Part shown: in pieces, positions 2,029 to 55,100 of the stretch
How the letters are laid out: each line of letters begins with the position of its first letter
How positions within the stretch are numbered: the first letter of the stretch is position 1
Assembly (NCBI GenBank): GCA_031372565.1
Contig: JANMLN010000124.1
Coordinates: forward strand, 15,684 to 79,683
Length of the DNA stretch: 64,000 nucleotides
Direction of reading: 5' to 3'
Source: Gemmatimonadota bacterium
GTDB taxonomy: Bacteria; Gemmatimonadota; Gemmatimonadetes; Gemmatimonadales; Gemmatimonadaceae
Position numbers and translations under genes: made by a program
Notes under the pieces: model-generated
What the model saw: only the letters and a program-made list of their open reading frames with translations
Told to the model about the DNA's origin: nothing
Databases searched by the model: none

Positions 2029-3450
2029 TCAGGCCTTGGGCTTCGACGCCTTGGGCTTCACCAGCCAGAACTTCTCCTGCCGCCCCAGCGCCCACTGCGG
2101 CTTGCCGTCGGCGCCAATCACGAAGTCCTCTTCCTGCCGCACCCGCACCGGCTGGTTCCCCCACTCGGGGATCGGGCTCGTCACCTGCAGCTCGCTCGAG
2201 AACCACATGTTGGGAATCACCACGGCATCGCCCCGCCCCGGCACGCCATCCTGATAGTCCCACAACCCGATCAGCGGACCCGCGCCGTGGCCGTGCAGCC
2301 CGATCGGATGCGAGTACATGGTGCCCTCGAGCCCCTCGATCGCCAGCTTCGCGCGCACCGCGGCGAGAATCTCGTTGCCGCTGCGGCCGGGTCGCGTTTC
2401 CTCGAAGAGGATGTCCTGGAACCGGTTGGACCGCTTGAGCGCCGCCTGCAAGCCGGCCGGCGGTTCCGTTTCGCCATCCTCGAGCACGTAGCCGTTGTGC
2501 TGCGTGTCGGTGTTGAGCCGGAGCGCGGTAATGCCCACATCGCACCAGAGCATGTCGCCCGGCATGATCACGGGATCCTCGCCCAGCTGCGACCCGGTCG
2601 CGCCCTTGCGCTGCACATCGATGCTGGGCTGGAACCAGGTGCCGATGCCCAGGTCCGCGACCTGCTGGCGCCACCACCAGACGAGGTCGCTCGTGCGCGT
2701 CTTGCCGGGAGTGACGACCTCGTTGGAGAACATCCGCTCGATGAGCGACCAGACCAGCTGCTGATGCTTCTTGTAGTACGCCGCCTCTTCGGGGAGCCGC
2801 GAGGCGATCATCTCGAGGGCAAGCGCCTCCGCCGGGCGGAACTTGCTCGACCAGGACGGCCCGAGCGCATCGGACATGCCCGCCAGCTCGCCGCTCGACA
2901 GGCCATCGGTGAACGCGAACACCTTGGACGTGTTGATGGCGATCGTGCGCGGATTGCGCTCGACGATCACCGCCTTGAGCGCCTCCCACTGCTCATCGCC
3001 CCACAGCTCGGCTTGCCGCGCGCCGACCGCCGCGTTCACGGCCTTGGTGCTCGAGACCGCCTTGAAGACGCCACCCTGCGACGTCCCGCCGAGGGCCAGC
3101 CGTTCGATCCCCTTGTCGCACGTGGGCGCAGGCTCGACGCCACCCGCCGTGCAGCGATCAAAGAAGACGTAGATCGTGCGGCGGCGCGCGGCGAACGTTG
3201 TGGGACTCGTGATCGCGCTGAAGACCGGGTCCTCGTTGTATTCGCGCATCGGCACCACCCACATGTCCACGCGCTGCTTGCGCATGAGTGCCGGCAGGAA
3301 GGTGTCGAGGCGCTTGGCGAGCCACGCCTGCTGCACCGCCGCCTGTTCCTTGACGGTACCGAACGGGCGCGTGGGTGCCTTGGCCTGGGCCGAGGCAACG
3401 TGCGCGCTGGTGGCCAGCGCGAGAGCGGCAAACGGGAGGGTGCGTGTCAT
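2029..3450 (-). CDS. Secreted M24 family metallopeptidase (Xaa-Pro aminopeptidase-like)
   Basis: Signal peptide; metal-ligand motifs CDVG, NTDTQH, SHPIGLHGH, SSE, QEED. Confidence 0.88.
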   Translation of the reverse strand: MTRTLPFAALALATSAHVASAQAKAPTRPFGTVKEQAAVQQAWLAKRLDTFLPALMRKQRVDMWVVPMREYNEDPVFSAITSPTTFAARRRTIYVFFDRCTAGGVEPAPTCDKGIERLALGGTSQGGVFKAVSSTKAVNAAVGARQAELWGDEQWEALKAVIVERNPRTIAINTSKVFAFTDGLSSGELAGMSDALGPSWSSKFRPAEALALEMIASRLPEEAAYYKKHQQLVWSLIERMFSNEVVTPGKTRTSDLVWWWRQQVADLGIGTWFQPSIDVQRKGATGSQLGEDPVIMPGDMLWCDVGITALRLNTDTQHNGYVLEDGETEPPAGLQAALKRSNRFQDILFEETRPGRSGNEILAAVRAKLAIEGLEGTMYSHPIGLHGHGAGPLIGLWDYQDGVPGRGDAVVIPNMWFSSELQVTSPIPEWGNQPVRVRQEEDFVIGADGKPQWALGRQEKFWLVKPKASKPKA

Positions 3451-3468
3451 GGGGTTGTGGGCGAAGGG

Positions 3469-3605
3469 TGTCGTCCTGAGCGCAGCCTGTCGTCCTGAGC
3501 GCAGCGAAGGACCTGCTTCTCGCGAAACCGCACAAGCAGATCCTTCGCTGCGCTCAGGATGACTCAATATGCAGATCCTTCGCTGCGCTCAGGATGACTC
3601 AATAT
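3469..3605. repeat. REP-like palindromic element, copy 1, with tandem duplication of both arms
   Basis: Left arm TGTCGTCCTGAGCGCAGCGAAGGACCTGCTT (3488-3518), right arm AAGCAGATCCTTCGCTGCGCTCAGGATGAC (3534-3563); extra 18-bp left copy 3469-3486; exact 35-bp tandem 3536-3570/3571-3605. Confidence 0.9.
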
Positions 3606-27596: not shown

Positions 27597-28823
27597 ATGC
27601 CCGACGCGGCCCCGGCGGCGCGTGGCGTCTACAAACCCCGGCGCCCCAAGGCGTCGCCGCTCTTTCGGTTGGTGTCGGACCACCTGCATCGCCTGCAGAC
27701 GGTCTACGACGAGCGCTTCGCGCGCGAGTATGGCCCATGGCGCCCCGTCGTCGCGCAGGTCGCTGGCAAGTTCCTCGCCGGCGGCGTGCTCGAGCACGGG
27801 TTCGCGCGCATCCGCTGCGACGACTGTGCACACGAATACCTGCTCGCGTTCTCCTGCAAGTGTCGCTATTTCTGCCCGAGCTGTCACGCCAAGCGGCTCG
27901 CCATCTGGACGCGGTGGCTCGACACGACGCTCCTCACGCCCGTGCCGCACCGGCAGGTGGTGCTCACCATTCCCAAGCGCCTCCGGGCGTATTGTCTGTA
28001 CCGGCGACGCCTACTCGGCGAGATCGCCCGCGCCGCCGCCCGCACCGTCACCGCCGCCATTCGGACGCTGACCGGCGAGCGCGATCTCGCCGTGGGGATC
28101 GTCGCGTGCCTGCAGACGCACGGCTCCCGGGCGAACTGGCATCCGCACCTGCACCTCCTCGTCACCGACGGCGGCTTCCGGCCAGATGGCACCTTCGTGT
28201 CGTGGCCGGTGCACGATACTGCGCGTTTGACTGAGGCGTTTCGCCGCGCCGTGCTGCGGTTGTTCGTGCGGCTCGAGCTCTTCGATGAAGACCAGGCCGC
28301 GGGCATGCTGACGTGGCCGCATTCCGGGTTCCACGTGCACACCGCCGTGTGGGTCCCGGAGGACGATCGCGCGTTCGCCACCCGCCTCGCGCGCTACTGC
28401 GCCCGGAATCCCGTCGCGCTGGAGCGGCTGACCTACGACCGCGCCGCCAAGGCGGTGACGGACCGGTCGGACAAGTCCGAGGGCCCGACGGCGGGTACCG
28501 AAACCGCCGACCCGCTCGAGTTCCTGGCCCGGGTGCTGGTGCATATCCCCGACAAGGGCCACGTCACCACGCGGTACTATGGCTGGTATGCCAACCGCCC
28601 CCGTGGCATGCGGATCGCCGCGTGCATCACGCAGGCCTCGGTGATCGACCAGCTCCTCACACACCTCCGCACCCGCGCGGCGCACGCGGCCCACACCGGC
28701 GCACGGAGCCCGCCATCGACGCGGACCCCCGCGAGCCGAGGGGCATCACGCGCCTCACGCACGAGAGTGCCGACGCGCCGCTGTCGGCGGCGGTCGTGGA
28801 GGGGCGCGAGCAGTCCCTCGTGA
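27597..28823 (+). mobile_element. IS91/ISCR-type HUH rolling-circle transposase, apparently damaged
   Basis: Zn-binding CDDC...SCKCRYFCPSC, HRQVVLTIP, HUH motif WHPHLH, SGFHVH, RLARY, RYYGWYAN; first Cys replaced (LAGG) and C-terminal segment apparently missing. Confidence 0.9.
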
Positions 28824-31825: not shown

Positions 31826-31966
31826 TTGGACACGACCGCTTCGCACATGGTTGGGAGTGCACGCACGCTTACGTGCTGGCCTTCTCCCGCAAGTGCCGCT
31901 ACGTCTGCCCCAGTTCTCCTGCCCAAGCGCCTCGCGATCTGGACCCAGTGGCTCGACGCCACACGC
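31826..31966 (+). pseudogene. Fragment of a second IS91/ISCR-type transposase (Zn-binding region)
   Basis: Reads CTHAYVLAFSRKCRYVCPS, then after a frameshift KRLAIWTQWLD; homologous to CAHEYLLAFSCKCRYFCPS..KRLAIWTRWLD at about 27825-27925. Confidence 0.85.
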
Positions 31967-33872: not shown

Positions 33873-33904
33873 ATACTCCAGCCACCCCGATCGCATTTCC
33901 TATC
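33873..33904 (+). mobile_element. Orphan oriIS-like end of an IS91/ISCR-type element
   Basis: ATACTCCAGCCACCCCGATCGCATTTCCTATC; TTCCTAT core as in IS91/ISCR origins; 24/32 identical to the reconstructed site at 39219-39247+40666-40668. Confidence 0.6.
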
Positions 33905-34023
33905 GGGACCACCCGCGCGAGCGCCCCGCCCGGAGTGTCCGGAACCGCGCACACATCCGCTCTGGCCTTTACTCGGGCACAGAGACAGAATTGCGGATTC
34001 GACGCTCCCTCACTCCCGCTCAC

Positions 34024-36786: not shown

Positions 36787-36791
36787 ACCCC

Positions 36792-36878
36792 GTGAGCATG
36801 CTCGAGCGACTCGCGGCGGCCCTCGCCGGACGGTACGCCGTCGAGCGCGAAATCGGGGCCGGCGGCATGGCCACCGTC
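36792..36878 (+). pseudogene. N-terminal stub of a second Ser/Thr kinase
   Basis: MLERLAAALAGRYAVEREIGAGGMATV, paralogous to the upstream kinase start, then abruptly unrelated. Confidence 0.8.
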
Positions 36879-36985
36879 ACGAGGCCGGGCTTGGTCGGAT
36901 GGCGATACTGCGCGTGGCTGCCGCGCGTCCGAGCGCGCAACCAGCCGTCATCGCGCAGGACGCGGAGCATATCGCGGATCTTCAC
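36870..36985 (-). pseudogene. hicA: Truncated HicA-family toxin (no hicB nearby)
   Basis: MKIRDMLRVLRDDGW...TRGSHAQYRHPTKPGLVTVA with the GSH motif; native C-terminus missing, frame runs on into antisense kinase sequence to 36761. Confidence 0.8.
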
Positions 36986-37206
36986 CTGCGGAGTTGCACG
37001 AGTCCGCGTGAGGAAGGCAAGCGCGTAACGTGCGCAGTCAGGCGCGTGCGAACAGCGACCGTTCGTCGCCGCCCTCCGGGCGCACGGCCTACTCATCCTT
37101 TCAGGCGATGGTAGTCCGAAGGAGGGATGTGCAGCATGTGATGTGGGCGCCGAGGCCACGGCCGAGGGACTTTGGGCAACGCGCCAGACATCGAGGATCC
37201 ATTCAC

Positions 37207-38040
37207 ATGTCTCGCATGCGCACTTTCGGCGCCGTCGCACGGGCCGCCGTCGCGACGCTGGTGCTCTCGACCGTCGCAGCCGCCCAAGGGCCGCTCCGGA
37301 GCGCCAACCCGTTTGCCGTGCTCGGTGGCTCAACCGTGACCAATACGGGCCCCACCACGATCACCGGCAATCTCGGCCTGTATCCGGGAACGGCCATCAC
37401 AGGTCTCGGCAGCATCACGCTGAACGGCACCGTGCACGCCACCGATGGCGTGGCCGCGCTCGCGCAGCAGGACGCGCGTACCGCGTACAACTACTTCCGC
37501 AGCCTGCCGCTCACGACCGACCTCTCGGGTATCGATCTGGGTGGTCGTACGTTGACGCCGGGGGTCTACGCGTTCTCGTCCTCGGCGCAACTGACCGGCA
37601 ACCTGGTGCTCGACTTCCTCGGCAACCCGAATGGACAGTTCATCTTCCAGATCGGCAGCGCGTTCACGTCCGCGAGCGGATCGTCGGTGTCGGTGCTCAA
37701 CGGCGGCGCGGGCAGCGGCGTGTACTGGCAGGTTGGCAGTTCGGCCACGCTCGGCAGCACGACGAGCTTCATGGGCAACCTGATTGCCGACCAGAGCATC
37801 ACGATGACGACCGGGGCCAAGATCGGCTGCGGGCGCGCGTTCGCGCTCGTTGGTGCCGTCACACTCGACAACAACGTGATTGCCGCGAGTTGCCGTGCTG
37901 GCGGCGGCCCCGATGACTTCGGCAGCGGTGGCTTCAGTGGCGGGACCCAGCCGGCCGTGGTGCCGGAGCCCGCGACGTTCGTGTTGCTCGGAAGCGGGCT
38001 TCTCGGCATGCTGGCGTTCGGGTGTCGTCGCTCTCGCTGA
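37207..38040 (+). CDS. Ice-binding protein (DUF3494) with PEP-CTERM sorting domain
   Basis: [52 protein letters not shown]-terminal [16 protein letters not shown]...RRSR. Confidence 0.9.
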
Positions 38041-39182: not shown

Positions 39183-39263
39183 GCGGCGTCGGACTCGTCC
39201 GGTGGGCGATCGCGTCGCATACGCAACCGACGCGGATCGAAATTCCTTCTGTGAAGCGCCGGC

Positions 39264-39520
39264 CCGCGACAAGCCCCCACATGCTGTTGCGAGGCTTGGC
39301 GTGGCAGCTTCTTCAATTGTCCGAGCGATCCTCGAGGTGCTGCTCAGCCTTGTGTTCGCGCGCTCGGATGGGACGCGATGGTCCCGGCGCATGCGGGTGG
39401 TCCGAAGAAGCGGGGTGGCGCCAACTCTCCCACGACGTCGATGGTCCGTGGTGCGTCAAGGAATCTCACGCGCGCTGTCGCTCCCGATTCAGTCATCTCG
39501 ATTCGCGCCCGGTGCGCGGC
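39264..39520 (-). ncRNA. Putative bridge/seek RNA region of the IS1111-type element
   Basis: About 257-bp non-coding region downstream of tnp with segments matching target flanks (39459-39467, 39482-39487) and the element end (39421-39426). Confidence 0.55.
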
Positions 39521-39521
39521 G

Positions 39522-40550
39522 CTACGCCGCGCGGGGTGGGGCCTCCGTCGGACGCGGGCGGAGCTGCTGCGCGTCGAACGACGCACCGTCCCGCCAGATC
39601 GCGTAGAGGATGCCCGCCAGTCGGCGCGCGAGGGCGACCGCGTCGCTGCGCGATCTGCACGGTCCACGCACGCAGCGCCGCGGTCTCGGTGGACGTCGAG
39701 CGCAGGATCGTCCACGCCGCTTCCACCAGCAGCCAGCGCATGCGCCCGTTGCCCGCTTTCGTGAGGTGCCCCAGCTGCCGCTTCGCGCGCGATCTGCGCT
39801 CGCTCGGAATCAGGCCGAGGTACGCCTCGAGTTCGTGGGCCGAGCGAAACCGCGTGATGTCATCCACCGTGGCCACGAACGCGCTGGCCGTCAGGGGCCC
39901 CACGCCCGGCGCGGTCGTGAGGCGCAGCGCGATGGGCTCCTCCTGCACGAAGGCCGCGATGCGCGCATCGGCCACGCCGATCTGCGCGTTGAGCGGGGTG
40001 AACACCGCGAACAGTGGCGACAGTTCGGTGGTCAACGTGGGTGAGAGCTCCAACTCGGCAATCCGCGTCGGCGCCCAGGCACTCGCACTCGTTGGCACCC
40101 GCAACCCGTCGCGTCGTACGAGCGCCTTCGCGAGCGCGACATACCGCGTGCGCGTGCGCACGAGCGCATCGCGCACTGCGGGTTCGGCCCGCACATGCCG
40201 TCGCGCCTCGGAGAGCCGATAGGCCGGACGCCAGGCGCCCGTTTCGCACGCGTCCATCAGTGTGCGCGCATCGCGCTTATCGGTCTTGGTGCGGCGCGAG
40301 CGATTGGCGTACATCGGCGCATAGTTCGGGTCTGCCACGATCACCTCGTGGCCGAGCGAATCGAGGTGGCGCGCCACCCACTCGCTCTCCCTGCTCGCTT
40401 CGAGCAGGATGCGAGCCGGCGCCCGCCCGCGCAGCACCGCGGTGAACCGCTCCCGGCTGGTGGCGATCCGGCGATCGGTGACGGTCCCGTCGGCTGCCTT
40501 CATCGACAGCTGACTCTTGCGCTTGTGCAGATCCAGGCCTATGACTTCAC
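39522..40550 (-). pseudogene. IS110 DEDD recombinase/transposase, frameshifted
   Basis: IGLDLHK, LLEAS, KTDKRDA, PGVGP, YLGLIPS, TKAGN; GTG start out of frame; C-terminal VALARRLAGILYAIWRD in a shifted frame. Confidence 0.9.
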
Positions 40551-40765
40551 GGTGGCTGGCCTCCCGGTATGCGCCCCGGCGGCAGACGGTGCGCGGGTGG
40601 ATCGTGGTGGGGCAGAGGGTAGCTCCGCGTTACCGTGGAGGTCCAGCCGCCGCTTCATACCAACTATCCCGACTTCGACCCGAGCTCCGAGGTATCCTGT
40701 GCGCCGTTCGCAGACTCCCCCCCCCCGCGCTGAATACACACAGGCGAGCATTCGCTGCGCGCAGC

Positions 40766-50722: not shown

Positions 50723-52099
50723 ATGGCCACCGCCGTCACGCCGTCGTCGTCGTCGTCTTCGTCGGGCCTCCCGCCGGGCCCTAAACGGCAGTTCCCTGGC
50801 CAGATGCTGCTGCGGCTCCGGAAGGACGGACTGCTGCAGGTCATGAACGAGATGGCGCAGGCGCATGGGGACATCGTGCACTTCACGCTGCCCGGTGAGC
50901 ACATGGCGCTCCTGAGCCATCCCGATGACATCCGGGACATGCTCGTGACGCACCAGAAGCAGTTCAAGAAGGGGCGCGGCCTCGAGCGCACCGAGATGCT
51001 GCTGGGCAAGGGGCTGCTCACCAGTGAGGGGGAGTTCCATCTCAGGCAACGGCGACTCGCCTCGCCGGCCTTTCACCGGCAGCGCATCGGCGGCTACGGC
51101 GAGGTCATGACCGGGTACGCCCACCGCCACGCCGATGGATGGCGCGATGGCGAGATGCGCGACATGAGCGCCGACATGATGCGCCTGACGCTGGCCATCG
51201 CCGGCAAGACGCTGTTCGATGCCGACGTCGAGTCCGAAGCCGCCGAGGTGGGGCAAGCGCTCACGGACGTGTTCGAGGCATGGAGCATCGCGCTGCTCCC
51301 GTTTGGCGAGTTCCTCGTGAAGCTGCCGATTCCGGCGGCGCGCCGCTTTCGAGTGGGCAAGGCGAAGCTGGATGCCATCATCTACGGCATGATTGCCGAC
51401 CGGCGCGCCTCGGGGCGCGACCATGGCGATCTCCTCTCGATGCTGATGGCCGCGGCGGACACCGAAGGGGACGGCACCGGCATGACCGATGAGCAGCTGC
51501 GCGACGAGTGCCTGACGATCTTCCTCGCCGGACACGAGACCACCGCCAACGCGCTCACCTGGACCTGGTACCTGCTCTCGGAGCATCCCGAGATCGAGGC
51601 GCGGCTGCACGAAGAAGTCGACCGCGTGCTCGGCGACCGCCGCGCGACCCATGACGACTTGCCGCAGTTGCCGTTCACGCGCATGGTGCTCGCCGAGTCG
51701 ATGAGACTGTACCCGCCGGCCTACGGGCTGGGCCGACGCGCGCTCGTGCCGTACGACGTGGGCGGCTACCGGCTCCCGGCGCGCACGGTCGTGCTCGCCT
51801 CGCAGTACTACGTGCATCGCGACCCGCGCTGGTGGAGCGAGCCCGAGCGGTTCAATCCCGACCGCTGGCGCGAGGGGAGCGGCGAGCCGCGCCACAAGCA
51901 TGCCTACTTCCCGTTCGGGGCCGGCACGCGCGTGTGCGTCGGCGAACAGTTCGCGTGGATGGAGGGGATCCTGGTGATCGCCGAGCTCGCGCGGCGGTGG
52001 CGGTTCCGGCACGATCCGACGCACCATGTCGGACTCGCACCCGTGATCACGCTCCGCCCATCCCACGGCATGCGCATGCGCTTCGAGCGCCGCCGTTAG
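50723..52099 (+). CDS. Cytochrome P450
   Basis: AGHETT I-helix, ESMR (ExxR), PERF, FPFGAGTRVCVG heme Cys. Confidence 0.96.
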   Translation: MATAVTPSSSSSSSGLPPGPKRQFPGQMLLRLRKDGLLQVMNEMAQAHGDIVHFTLPGEHMALLSHPDDIRDMLVTHQKQFKKGRGLERTEMLLGKGLLTSEGEFHLRQRRLASPAFHRQRIGGYGEVMTGYAHRHADGWRDGEMRDMSADMMRLTLAIAGKTLFDADVESEAAEVGQALTDVFEAWSIALLPFGEFLVKLPIPAARRFRVGKAKLDAIIYGMIADRRASGRDHGDLLSMLMAAADTEGDGTGMTDEQLRDECLTIFLAGHETTANALTWTWYLLSEHPEIEARLHEEVDRVLGDRRATHDDLPQLPFTRMVLAESMRLYPPAYGLGRRALVPYDVGGYRLPARTVVLASQYYVHRDPRWWSEPERFNPDRWREGSGEPRHKHAYFPFGAGTRVCVGEQFAWMEGILVIAELARRWRFRHDPTHHVGLAPVITLRPSHGMRMRFERRR

Positions 52100-52109
52100 C
52101 TTGGGCGCC

Positions 52110-55100
52110 ATGTCCTGGATTCTCTACGCGGTCTTCGTGCTCTCGGGGGCCGCCGGCCTCATCTACGAAACAGTCTGGAGCCGCTACCTCGGACTCTTCG
52201 TCGGGCACAGCGCCTACGCGCACGTCATCGTGCTGGTGATGTTCCTGGGCGGCATGTCGCTCGGTGCGTACACCATCGGCGAGCGGTCGTCGCGGCTGGC
52301 GCGTCCGTTGCGCTGGTACGTCGGCATCGAGATCGTGGTCGGCGTGATCGGGATCGTCTTCCACGACGTGTTCGTCGCGGTCACCGCCATCGCCTACGAC
52401 GCGATCTTCCCCGCGCTGGGCGCCGGTCTCCTGCTCACGATCATCAAGTGGGGCCTGGCCGCGCTGCTCATCCTGCCACAGTCCGTGCTCCTCGGGATGA
52501 CCTTCCCGTTGATGAGCGCGGGAGTCCTGCGGACCCTGCGCGCACCGGCGAGTGCGTCGGGGCGCGTGCTGGCGATGCTCTACTTCACGAACTCCATCGG
52601 CGCCGCTGCCGGTGGGCTTCTGGCCGGGTTCTGGCTGGTGGAACTCGCGGGGTTGCCGGGGACGCTCTACACGGCAGCCGCGCTCAACCTGATCGTGGCC
52701 GCCGTCGTGGTGGGGGTGGAGCAGTTCGGCCAGCGACAGGCCGTGGTCGACACGACCCCCGAAGCGATCGGCGAGCCGACGGCGGCGACCGCGCAGCGCA
52801 CCCGCCTCGAGCGCACCCTGCTCTGGGTGGCCGGTGGAACCGCGGTCGCATCGTTCGTCTACGAGATCGCCTGGATTCGCATGCTGTCGCTCGTGCTGGG
52901 CGCGGCGACGCATTCGTTCGAACTCATGCTCTCGGCCTTCATTACCGGGCTCGCGGCGGGCTCGCTCTGGGCGCGCAAGCGGGCCGACACGTTCGCCGAC
53001 CCGCTCCGTGCCCTCGGCATCGTGCAGGTGGTCATGGGGCTGCTGGCCGTGGCGACGCTGCCCTTGTATCGCGCCAGCTTCCACTGGCAGGCGCAACTGC
53101 TGCTGGCGCTCGACTACAACGAGGCGGCGTACACGATCTTCAGCGTCGCCAAGTACGCCATCTCGCTCATGGTCATGCTGCCGGCGACCTTCTGCGCCGG
53201 CGTCACGCTCCCGCTCATCACGCGCACCTTGCTCGCGGGCGGTGGTGGCGAGCGCGCCATCGGCCGCGTGTACGCGGTCAACACGCTGGGGTCGATCGTC
53301 GGGGCCGCCGCGGCCGCGCTGCTCCTGCTGCCGCTGCTGGGCGTGAAGGGGTTGCTCATCGCGGGCGCGTGTCTCGACATCGTCGTGGGGCTCTGGCTGC
53401 TGGCGGGTGCGGCCGACGCGTGGCGTCCGGTGCGTGCGTGGGCCGGGTGGGCGGCCGTTGCATCGGCGGCGATCATCGCCGTGTCGCTGGCCACCCCGCT
53501 CAACCCGCTCCTGCTCACCAGCGGCGTGTACCGCTATGCCTCCGCGGAAGTCGCGCCAACCTGGCGTTCGATCTTCTATCGGGATGGACGCACGGCCACG
53601 GTGAGCGCCCGCATCGACACGCTGTCGGGCGAGGTGTCGCTGGCCACCAATGGCAAGCCCGATGCCTCGCTCTCGCGGCAGTGGATGCAGCTGGCGGGTC
53701 CGCCGGCGGGCGCCATCACCGGTGATCAGTCGTCGCAGTTCCTCCTGCCGCTCATCACGCTCGCCTACAACCCCAAGGCCAGGCACGCGGCGGCGATCGG
53801 CCAGGGATCGGGGATGTCGTCGCACGTGTTGCTCGGCTCGCCCGTGATCGAGGAGCTGACGACCATCGAGATCGAGCCGCAGATGATCGAAGGGTCGCGC
53901 GTGTTCATGCCGGCCAATCGGCGCGTGTTCGAGGACAAGCGATCGCACTTCCGCATCGACGATGCGCGCTCCGTGTTCGCGTCGGGACACGTCAAGTTCG
54001 ACCTCATCCTCTCGGAGCCCTCGAATCCGTGGGTGAGCGGCGTGGCCGGCTTGTTCACGGACGAGTTCTACCAGCGCGCCAAGTCGGCGCTTGCGCCCGG
54101 CGGCGTCTTCGGGCAGTGGTTGCACCTGTACGAGACGAACGATGTGCTGGTGCTCTCGGTCCTTGCGGCCGTGCACCGCAACTTTCCCACGTACACGCTG
54201 CACCTCGTGTCGCCCTCCGACATGCTGATCGTCGCCACGGCCGACCCCGTGATGCCGAAGGCGGAGTGGTCGATCGTGACACTGCCCATGATCGAGGAGG
54301 AGATGCGGAAGGTCATTCCGCTGACCCCCGATGCGCTCGCGGCCACCTGGCTCGCCGATCGCGATGCGCTGGCCCCGCTGCTCGAGCGGTGGAAGGCGGT
54401 GAACTCGGACTTCTTCCCGTACCTCGATCTCGGCACCGAGCGCGCGCGCTTCCTGCGCGGTGGCGCGGCCGGGTTCTATGGACTCGCGACCGACCGCTTC
54501 TCGATCCTGCATGCGCTGCGCAGCCGCGTGAGCGCGCCCAACTTCGAGTTGCATGCGTCGAACGACATCGGGCGGGTGCAGCAACTGGCCAGCGGCGCGC
54601 GGTTGCGCTCTGCCATCGTCGGGCAGCTGGACCCCCGCGAGCTGAACGCCGACCGCACCACGTCGGCCAACCTGTTCCGGTACCGCCAGCTCGCCCTGCT
54701 GGCGAGTACCGGTACCGCGCCGGGTGACTGGCGCGCCTGGCTGGCGCAGGTGCAGGATGTTGAAGACGTGCTCGATGGCGGCAACGCCGGCGTGATCGAC
54801 AGCGCGTACTTCGCGATGCTCGAAGGGTACCTGCAGCGCGTGAAGGCGCCCGATGGTCCGCGCGTCGCGGTCGCGTACATGAAGGCGTTGAGCCGCTGGG
54901 ACTGGCCGCGCGCTGCGGCGATGTCGGATTCGTTGCTGCTGTTCGAGCGCCGCCGCTCTCCATGGATGGGGGCGGAGATCTTGCGTGCCGGCGGCGTGGT
55001 CGCGCATCTGCAGACGAGCGATCCCGCCGGTGCCCGCCGGTTGTTCGACTTCCTCACGCCAGGGCTGCGCATGCCGCGCAACGATGTACGCACGCTGCTG

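Follow-up and report, generated by a model that had tools for sequence, protein, structure and literature searches.

Two described systems stand closest to the locus reported here, IS621 and the IS1111 group. In IS621, the site has 14 positions, with CT at positions 8-9 and the cut placed between 9 and 10; positions 10-14 belong to the short guide, and the handshake bases pair with positions 6-7 of the incoming partner (PMC11208158, in the available part of that article). For IS1111 elements, the accessible portion of PMC11187229 gives the guide order in the RNA as right then left, and Siddiquee et al. 2024 hold there that, with this reversed order, the mechanisms of the two families cannot be assumed equal (PMC11187229).

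The window analysed is a stretch of 64,000 nt from a Gemmatimonadota bacterium (GCA_031372565.1, contig JANMLN010000124.1, positions 15,684-79,683), and all coordinates below refer to it. In the non-coding end of an insertion sequence in this window, a first-pass annotation had reported guide-like segments matching both halves of the insertion site and had read the region as a target-binding loop. The observation is partly confirmed, and its interpretation is partly supported. The non-coding right end very probably encodes a two-loop guide RNA, in which loop 1 is predicted to serve the site GGGAT-AG-GAATTTC and loop 2 the element's own joined ends.

The element and its insertion site

The insertion sequence is a decayed IS1111-type (IS110 family) element of 1418 bp on the minus strand (39248-40665), defined from its ends and its relatives; all element and RNA features given below lie on the same strand. 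Its subterminal inverted repeats, ATGAAGCGGCGG on the left (40647-40658) and CCGGCGCTTCAC on the right (39251-39262), are complementary at 11 of 13 positions, within the ~11-13 bp of the IS1111 group. Outside these repeats lie a 7-nt extension on the left (AGTTGGT) and a 3-nt extension on the right (AGA). Taking both out restores the oriIS consensus with no target duplication; the flanks in transposase sense read TCGGGAT before the initial AG of the element and AG GAATTTC after its terminal AGA. The gene for the DEDD transposase (39522-40552) matches PF01548 (E 4.6e-7), PF02371 (E 1.6e-21) and NF033542 (184 bits, cut-off 140), so that both the DEDD RuvC-like domain and the PF02371 domain of the IS110 family are present, though the gene is a pseudogene. 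Three-frame translation and comparison with relatives reveal a lost start codon, a deletion plus frameshift close to the C-terminus, and SRA in place of the conserved serine-glycine stretch. The gene is followed on its 3' side by ~270 bp of non-coding DNA (39248-39521), as in the IS1111 group. The element shows every IS1111 feature put to the test.

The genome contains one full copy of the element and one short fragment, and the closest relatives come from Gemmatimonadota assemblies. With a broken transposase and decay at three guide bases, the window copy is probably immobile. Promoter and terminator scans found none, and an Rfam search returned only a sub-threshold mir-128 match. Neither an empty site nor a circle junction is represented by a joint in the contigs of three DNA runs from one study, although such contigs cannot show absence.

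By sequence comparison, the target site matches the oriIS end of IS91-family elements, in agreement with the first-pass annotation, which had named it oriIS. The element splits an oriIS-like end on the plus strand into an outer part (40666-40671), the left target in transposase sense, and an inner part of ~60 bp (39188-39247), which resembles the ends behind IS91-family transposases on contig C104. With the element removed in silico, the plus strand has GGATCGAAATTCCT joined to ATCCC. The genome has nine similar ends that are uninterrupted, of which those on contigs C59 and C104 lie downstream of IS91-family Y2 transposases; the repeat family thus has the conserved terminus 3' of a Y2 HUH transposase, in the same orientation, that characterizes an IS91 oriIS. 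The comparison set comprised two ISCR1 copies and five other IS91-family loci. The two ISCR1 copies are identical until exactly 232 bp past the stop codon, where they end in TTCCTATACCC; the oriIS region is given as 232 bp in the available part of PMC6218425. TTCCTAT is found 171-224 bp past the stop in four of the five other loci, and alignment to the ISCR1 end places the insertion point ~6 bp inside the oriIS terminus.

The nearest IS91-family (Y2) transposase gene (27597-28823, plus strand; NF033538 157.9 bits, cut-off 125) has the orientation of the oriIS-like end and is 10.4 kb away, with no oriIS directly behind it; the end surviving at the insertion site is the ~60-bp remnant. Together with pieces at 31855-31963 and 33880-33910, this gene and the remnant form a chain of IS91-type sequences in one orientation among unrelated genes, made up of a transposase, a transposase fragment and two oriIS-like ends. 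This chain may record repeated gene capture. Among the unrelated genes, a kinase-like gene start is cut at ~28 codons and runs into an opposite-strand HicA toxin fragment (36790-37000; Pfam E 8e-9). An ice-binding-like (PF11999) protein with a PEP-CTERM tail is encoded at 37030-38040, and the nitroreductase-family gene adjoining it ends just short of the oriIS remnant. Internally deleted IS91-type derivatives, in which the first 47-75 codons of the transposase stand close behind an oriIS-like end, are present in G000 (C106, ~51986-52414) and at L006 (~3270-3521).

Guides and predicted structure of the RNA

The relatives comprise 80 loci from genome contigs and ten from related genomes, whose ends were called and whose non-coding ends were aligned. 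Twelve of 81 sequences had no non-coding anchor and were left out, as was L021, a duplicate of L090. The covariation set of 76 elements, with the window left out, falls into 52, 22 and 8 clusters at 90, 70 and 60% protein identity, and z values are given below in this order. Guides were taken from alignment columns blind to the flanks and compared with their own flanks against shuffled partners. A search for ends by repeats alone gave false calls for L042, L052, L065, L069, L073 and L074, and served only to catch non-AG left ends. It turned up one, L034, in which both junctions and both guides carry AA in place of AG, a natural core change in element and RNA together.

The right-target guide occupies 39459-39467, reading GAGATTCCT on the minus strand (AGGAATCTC on the plus strand), and is the complement of the AG core plus GAATTTC with one deviating base at 39465. 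The first-pass annotation had placed this guide correctly: it covaries with the right flank across the relatives (z 12.9/8.7/5.3, best of three registers). The left-target guide lies elsewhere than had been proposed, at 39425-39431, where the window copy has GGGA(G) plus the AG core, with a deviating base at 39427, and the relatives have GGGAT-AG. Its bases 39427-39431 covary with the left flank (z 13.7/9.2/4.8). These z values overstate the signal since related elements are not independent; the covariation of both guides persists at the coarsest clustering (60%). On the left flank, positions -5 to -1 covary (26-36 of 37 clusters) and -6 does not (5/37); on the right flank, +3 to +9 covary (10-13 of 13) and +10 does not (4/13), limits which rest on the 13 of 43 clusters sharing the window's register. 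Only these 13 clusters have the right guide in the exact 7+2 register, and sisters targeting attC-like and tRNA sites are shifted by 1-2 bases.

Since the left guide stands 3' of the right guide, the order is right then left in transposase sense, the reverse of the left-then-right order first suggested and the same as in IS1111 elements, as far as the partial text of PMC11187229 describes them. Correspondingly, the complement of the top strand precedes the match to the bottom strand in the RNA, as in the IS1111 group. Directly 3' of the left guide, a handshake-like TT (39423-39424) tracks the element's own left end and not the target (z 5.8/3.7/3.2), the two bases matching in 32 and 34 of 37 clusters, and the next two bases show no covariation. 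The hexamer AGTTGG, found at 39421-39426 as the first-pass annotation had it, therefore retains part of the meaning assigned to it: its AG is the core and its TT corresponds to the element's left end, whereas its final GG does not covary and its reading as a donor-loop match falls away. In three sediment runs of one study, contigs of near-identical elements carry the fully matching base at 39465, at 39427 and at 39352 in the donor guide described below. The guide deviations of the window are thus decay of this copy, and the single mismatch in the 8/9 right-target match, described earlier as wobble-compatible, is likewise a decayed base and no wobble by design. Three relatives (L096, L135 and L168) have flanks unlike their own guides; the RNA of another element may have moved them, or rearrangement may have followed their insertion.

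The predicted target-binding loop of the seekRNA/bridge RNA (39403-39489) is composed of an outer stem, a closing GCGC/GCGC helix, an internal loop holding the two guides, and an inner hairpin between them (39433-39458). RNAalifold on 45 aligned ends places both guides in the internal loop, between the GCGC helix and the inner hairpin and not in stems, with a second hairpin domain behind, and finds compensatory change at 10 of 19 pairs. In the inner hairpin 98.5% of cells are paired, with 11 compensatory cells at one pair. Folding of homologous ends and covariation of the guides with the target flanks hence bear out the assignment of this region as a target-binding loop. The outer stem, whose 5' arm contains TCGGGA (39482-39487), was not called by RNAalifold alone on the 45 aligned ends, and was specified by hand with the GGA of TCGGGA and the following bases in the stem. 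The specified structure has 91.5% of cells paired overall (34-63% in slid controls) and 42 compensatory cells versus 12.8 in shuffles; for the outer stem (columns 11-16 with 96-101) 82% of cells are paired. The fold of the window copy alone is uninformative (z -0.05).

The predicted donor-binding domain (39347-39398), delineated by covariation and a hairpin, is located 3' of the target-binding loop. It begins with a weak 5' donor segment (39391-39398; z 2.4/1.4/0.6) and continues with a hairpin carrying compensatory changes (39360-39390). This is followed by the donor guide ACA(C)AAG (39349-39355, decayed base 39352), which matches the element's right end and covaries with it (z 9.0/6.7/3.7), and by a handshake-like GC (39347-39348), for which the match is modest (27/43 and 21/43). 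Compared with the donor loop of IS621 with its two covarying guides, the 3' guide covaries here and the 5' guide does so weakly.

Target programmes and competing explanations

A metagenome scan keyed on a 25-nt stretch of the scaffold gave 120 matches, of which the 80 listed were used; L153, L187 and L189 were left out of the set. Three programmes are found on one scaffold, directed at oriIS-like ends, attC-like sites and the 3' half of tRNA-Pro(GGG). The attC-like sites are so named for general attC features and the hairpins present in them. Among the metagenome matches listed, 43 distinct sites have a readable guide and right flank, and guide and flank fall in the same class in 39; the remaining four are one mis-classed guide matching its own flank, one diverged oriIS-like end and two true mismatches. 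The left guide agrees with its flank at 4.41 of 5 bases versus 2.70 when shuffled (n=17, among the matches listed).

Insertion in attC-like sites is seen in L022-L032, L041, L042 and L090, whose right guide is shifted by one base against the window register; the shift is two bases in L095, L097 and L118. In L019, L020, L133, L158, L192 and other metagenome loci, the element directly precedes the 3' half of tRNA-Pro(GGG). This target matches the genome's own tRNA gene. ARAGORN found no whole tRNA in nine rebuilt empty sites; what these sisters target is therefore a 3'-half fragment of tRNA-Pro, similar to those that remain at island junctions. With GG as the first bases of their right junction, the target is without the AG core. 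Thirteen near-identical copies (L059-L071) share one Vicinamibacterales chromosome, nearly all in a repeated target GGG-AG-GATCTTC. A tally of oriIS-like targets in the genome set (3/21) was rejected as a rate, its loose pattern having also taken an unrelated Vicinamibacterales target.

The map of the first-pass annotation took TCGGGA as the left guide and GAGATTCCT as the right guide of a single loop in IS621 order, with AGTTGG as the donor match, and as a whole it is hardly credible. TCGGGA is indeed identical over 6 nt to this copy's left flank, and flanks of TCGGGAT or CGGGAT recur in several close relatives, but it shows no covariation with the left flank (z 0.9/-0.2/-0.6) and is kept under other targets, in 16 of 18 tRNA-guide elements (left flank mostly CGCAT) and in 5 of 20 attC-guide elements (among the matches listed, not dereplicated). 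When the 259-nt non-coding end is shuffled 20,000 times with dinucleotides preserved, a 6-nt left-flank match (TCGGGA or CGGGAT) arises in 18.6%, which makes the match weak on its face. The same shuffles yield an 8/9 right-target match in 1.2%, AGTTGG in 2.4% and GGGATAGTT with at most one mismatch (39423-39431, picked after viewing the relatives) in 0.26%, and GGGATAGTT (at most one mismatch) together with the right match in 0 of 20,000. The warning that the matches might be fortuitous was accordingly well placed for TCGGGA, which is within chance, and not for the right match and the AG-TT stretch, which exceed it. The annotation had stated that segments falling in stems or failing to covary with targets would speak against it; as an arm of the scaffold stem, TCGGGA is such a segment, and GAGATTCCT is not.

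It is unlikely, yet deserves to be taken seriously, that the RNA is a seekRNA with a target loop only, the ends being recognized by the protein via the subterminal repeats and the donor-like matches being passengers. An 82-nt target-only ISEc11 seekRNA suffices for transposition, according to the available part of PMC11187229, the 5' donor guide covaries weakly here, and the right end is variable at few positions, so that shared ancestry could yield part of the donor signal. Against this, right-end changes at -4 are tracked by the donor guide in 43 of 44 clusters (null 0.53), the single AAA right-end variant (L085) has a donor guide changed along with it, and the donor hairpin shows compensatory changes. 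Quite improbable is a target that is a generic short motif or repeat with an incidental link to IS91 origins. Such a view would suit the window's site, which has no adjoining IS91 transposase, and the five of nine distinct oriIS-like sites with no IS91 transposase in the flank examined, but transposase remnants stand behind the other four of nine versus 0 of 28 other sites (Fisher p 0.002; both counts among the metagenome matches listed), similar ends follow Y2 transposases in this genome, and TTCCTAT is present at the ISCR1 terminus. IS91 transposase remnants are also found behind L006, L015 and L016.

Proposed mechanism and relation to known systems

The two-loop guide RNA is the best explanation; element anatomy, guide-target covariation, helix covariation and target-family identity are demonstrated, and the further steps are modelled on IS621. 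Both strands of the 14-bp site GGGAT-AG-GAATTTC are the likely pairing partners of loop 1, and the joined ends of the element itself are those of loop 2. On the opposite strand, the site would run as seven bases, the CT core and five more bases, following IS621 (PMC11208158, in part). The loop would then present a long guide followed by a short guide with its handshake dinucleotide, a pattern that the donor loop would repeat. The layout likely equals the IS621 reaction with the strands renamed, in which case the bottom strand (in transposase sense) would be cut and exchanged first. With the handshake bases, the balance would tilt from excision towards insertion, which would split TTCCTAT ~6 bp inside the oriIS terminus, likely disabling the origin.

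The CT core, the 7+2+5 arrangement and the handshake of IS621 are found on the opposite strand in the window register (13 of 43 clusters for the right side, 37 for the left). The left-guide-first order and the RNA in the left end are absent in transposase sense, and the order appears only on the other strand. An IS621-like exchange would leave the donor core at the left junction and the target core at the right. Among the 35 clusters with both ends, the left dinucleotide is AG in 34, and the right one is AG in 23, AA in 8, GG in 3 and AT in 1; this asymmetry is no proof of strand order, because the 7+3 convention without duplication fits equally. The GG in three clusters breaks the near-invariant T of IS621. 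More broadly, the 'reversed order' could be one mechanism named from opposite strands. This clade would share IS621's CT core, 7+2+5 site, donor loop and handshakes, exchange the other strand first and tolerate targets without the donor core; one branch would be reprogrammed to destroy IS91/ISCR rolling-circle origins, with sisters on attC sites and tRNA-Pro fragments. We regard this broader proposal as evenly poised.

The system is a known one, and the window element, a dead member of it, now has a corrected guide map; its target class and mechanistic mapping we have not found in print. In the text passages covered, our literature search met no description of oriIS targeting by IS1111-type elements or of the opposite-strand equivalence; either point may already be contained in the IS1111 drawings of Durrant et al. 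2024 or in ISfinder entries. Base by base, the clade can be mapped onto the IS621 structure, with a prediction of the first-exchanged strand and the handshake positions; through this map, bridge-RNA design rules would become applicable to IS1111 enzymes. In addition, it supplies one scaffold with three natural programmes.

Compared with IS621, as described in the available parts of PMC11208160, PMC11208158 and PMC13626964, the element shares on the opposite strand the CT core, the 14-bp site with 7 and 5 flanking bases, the order of target loop then donor loop, and handshake dinucleotides matching the post-exchange partner. Unlike in IS621, its RNA follows the transposase in the right end, its subterminal repeats are long, and RNA and gene are opposite in direction relative to the donor halves. 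Moreover, the 5' donor guide of the clade is weak, and targets occur whose first two bases differ from the donor core. With ISEc11, ISKpn4, ISPst6 and ISPa11, as far as the partial text of PMC11187229 covers them, the element has in common the subterminal repeats with 7- and 3-nt extensions, the non-coding region after the transposase, the top-strand complement before the bottom-strand match, and natural reprogramming among relatives, some of them aimed at attC. It differs from this group in targeting an oriIS-like end and in that covariation resolves a donor loop and handshake-like bases, while the window copy is broken and known from sequence alone. Insertion into the end of another mobile element is also reported for the IS1111-type elements IS4321/IS5075 (Tn21 terminal repeats) and IS1383 (IS1384 repeats). 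The hosts of these elements have inverted-repeat ends, whereas the host end of the window element is a rolling-circle origin, and rolling-circle origins thereby join the mobile-element ends parasitised by RNA-guided elements.
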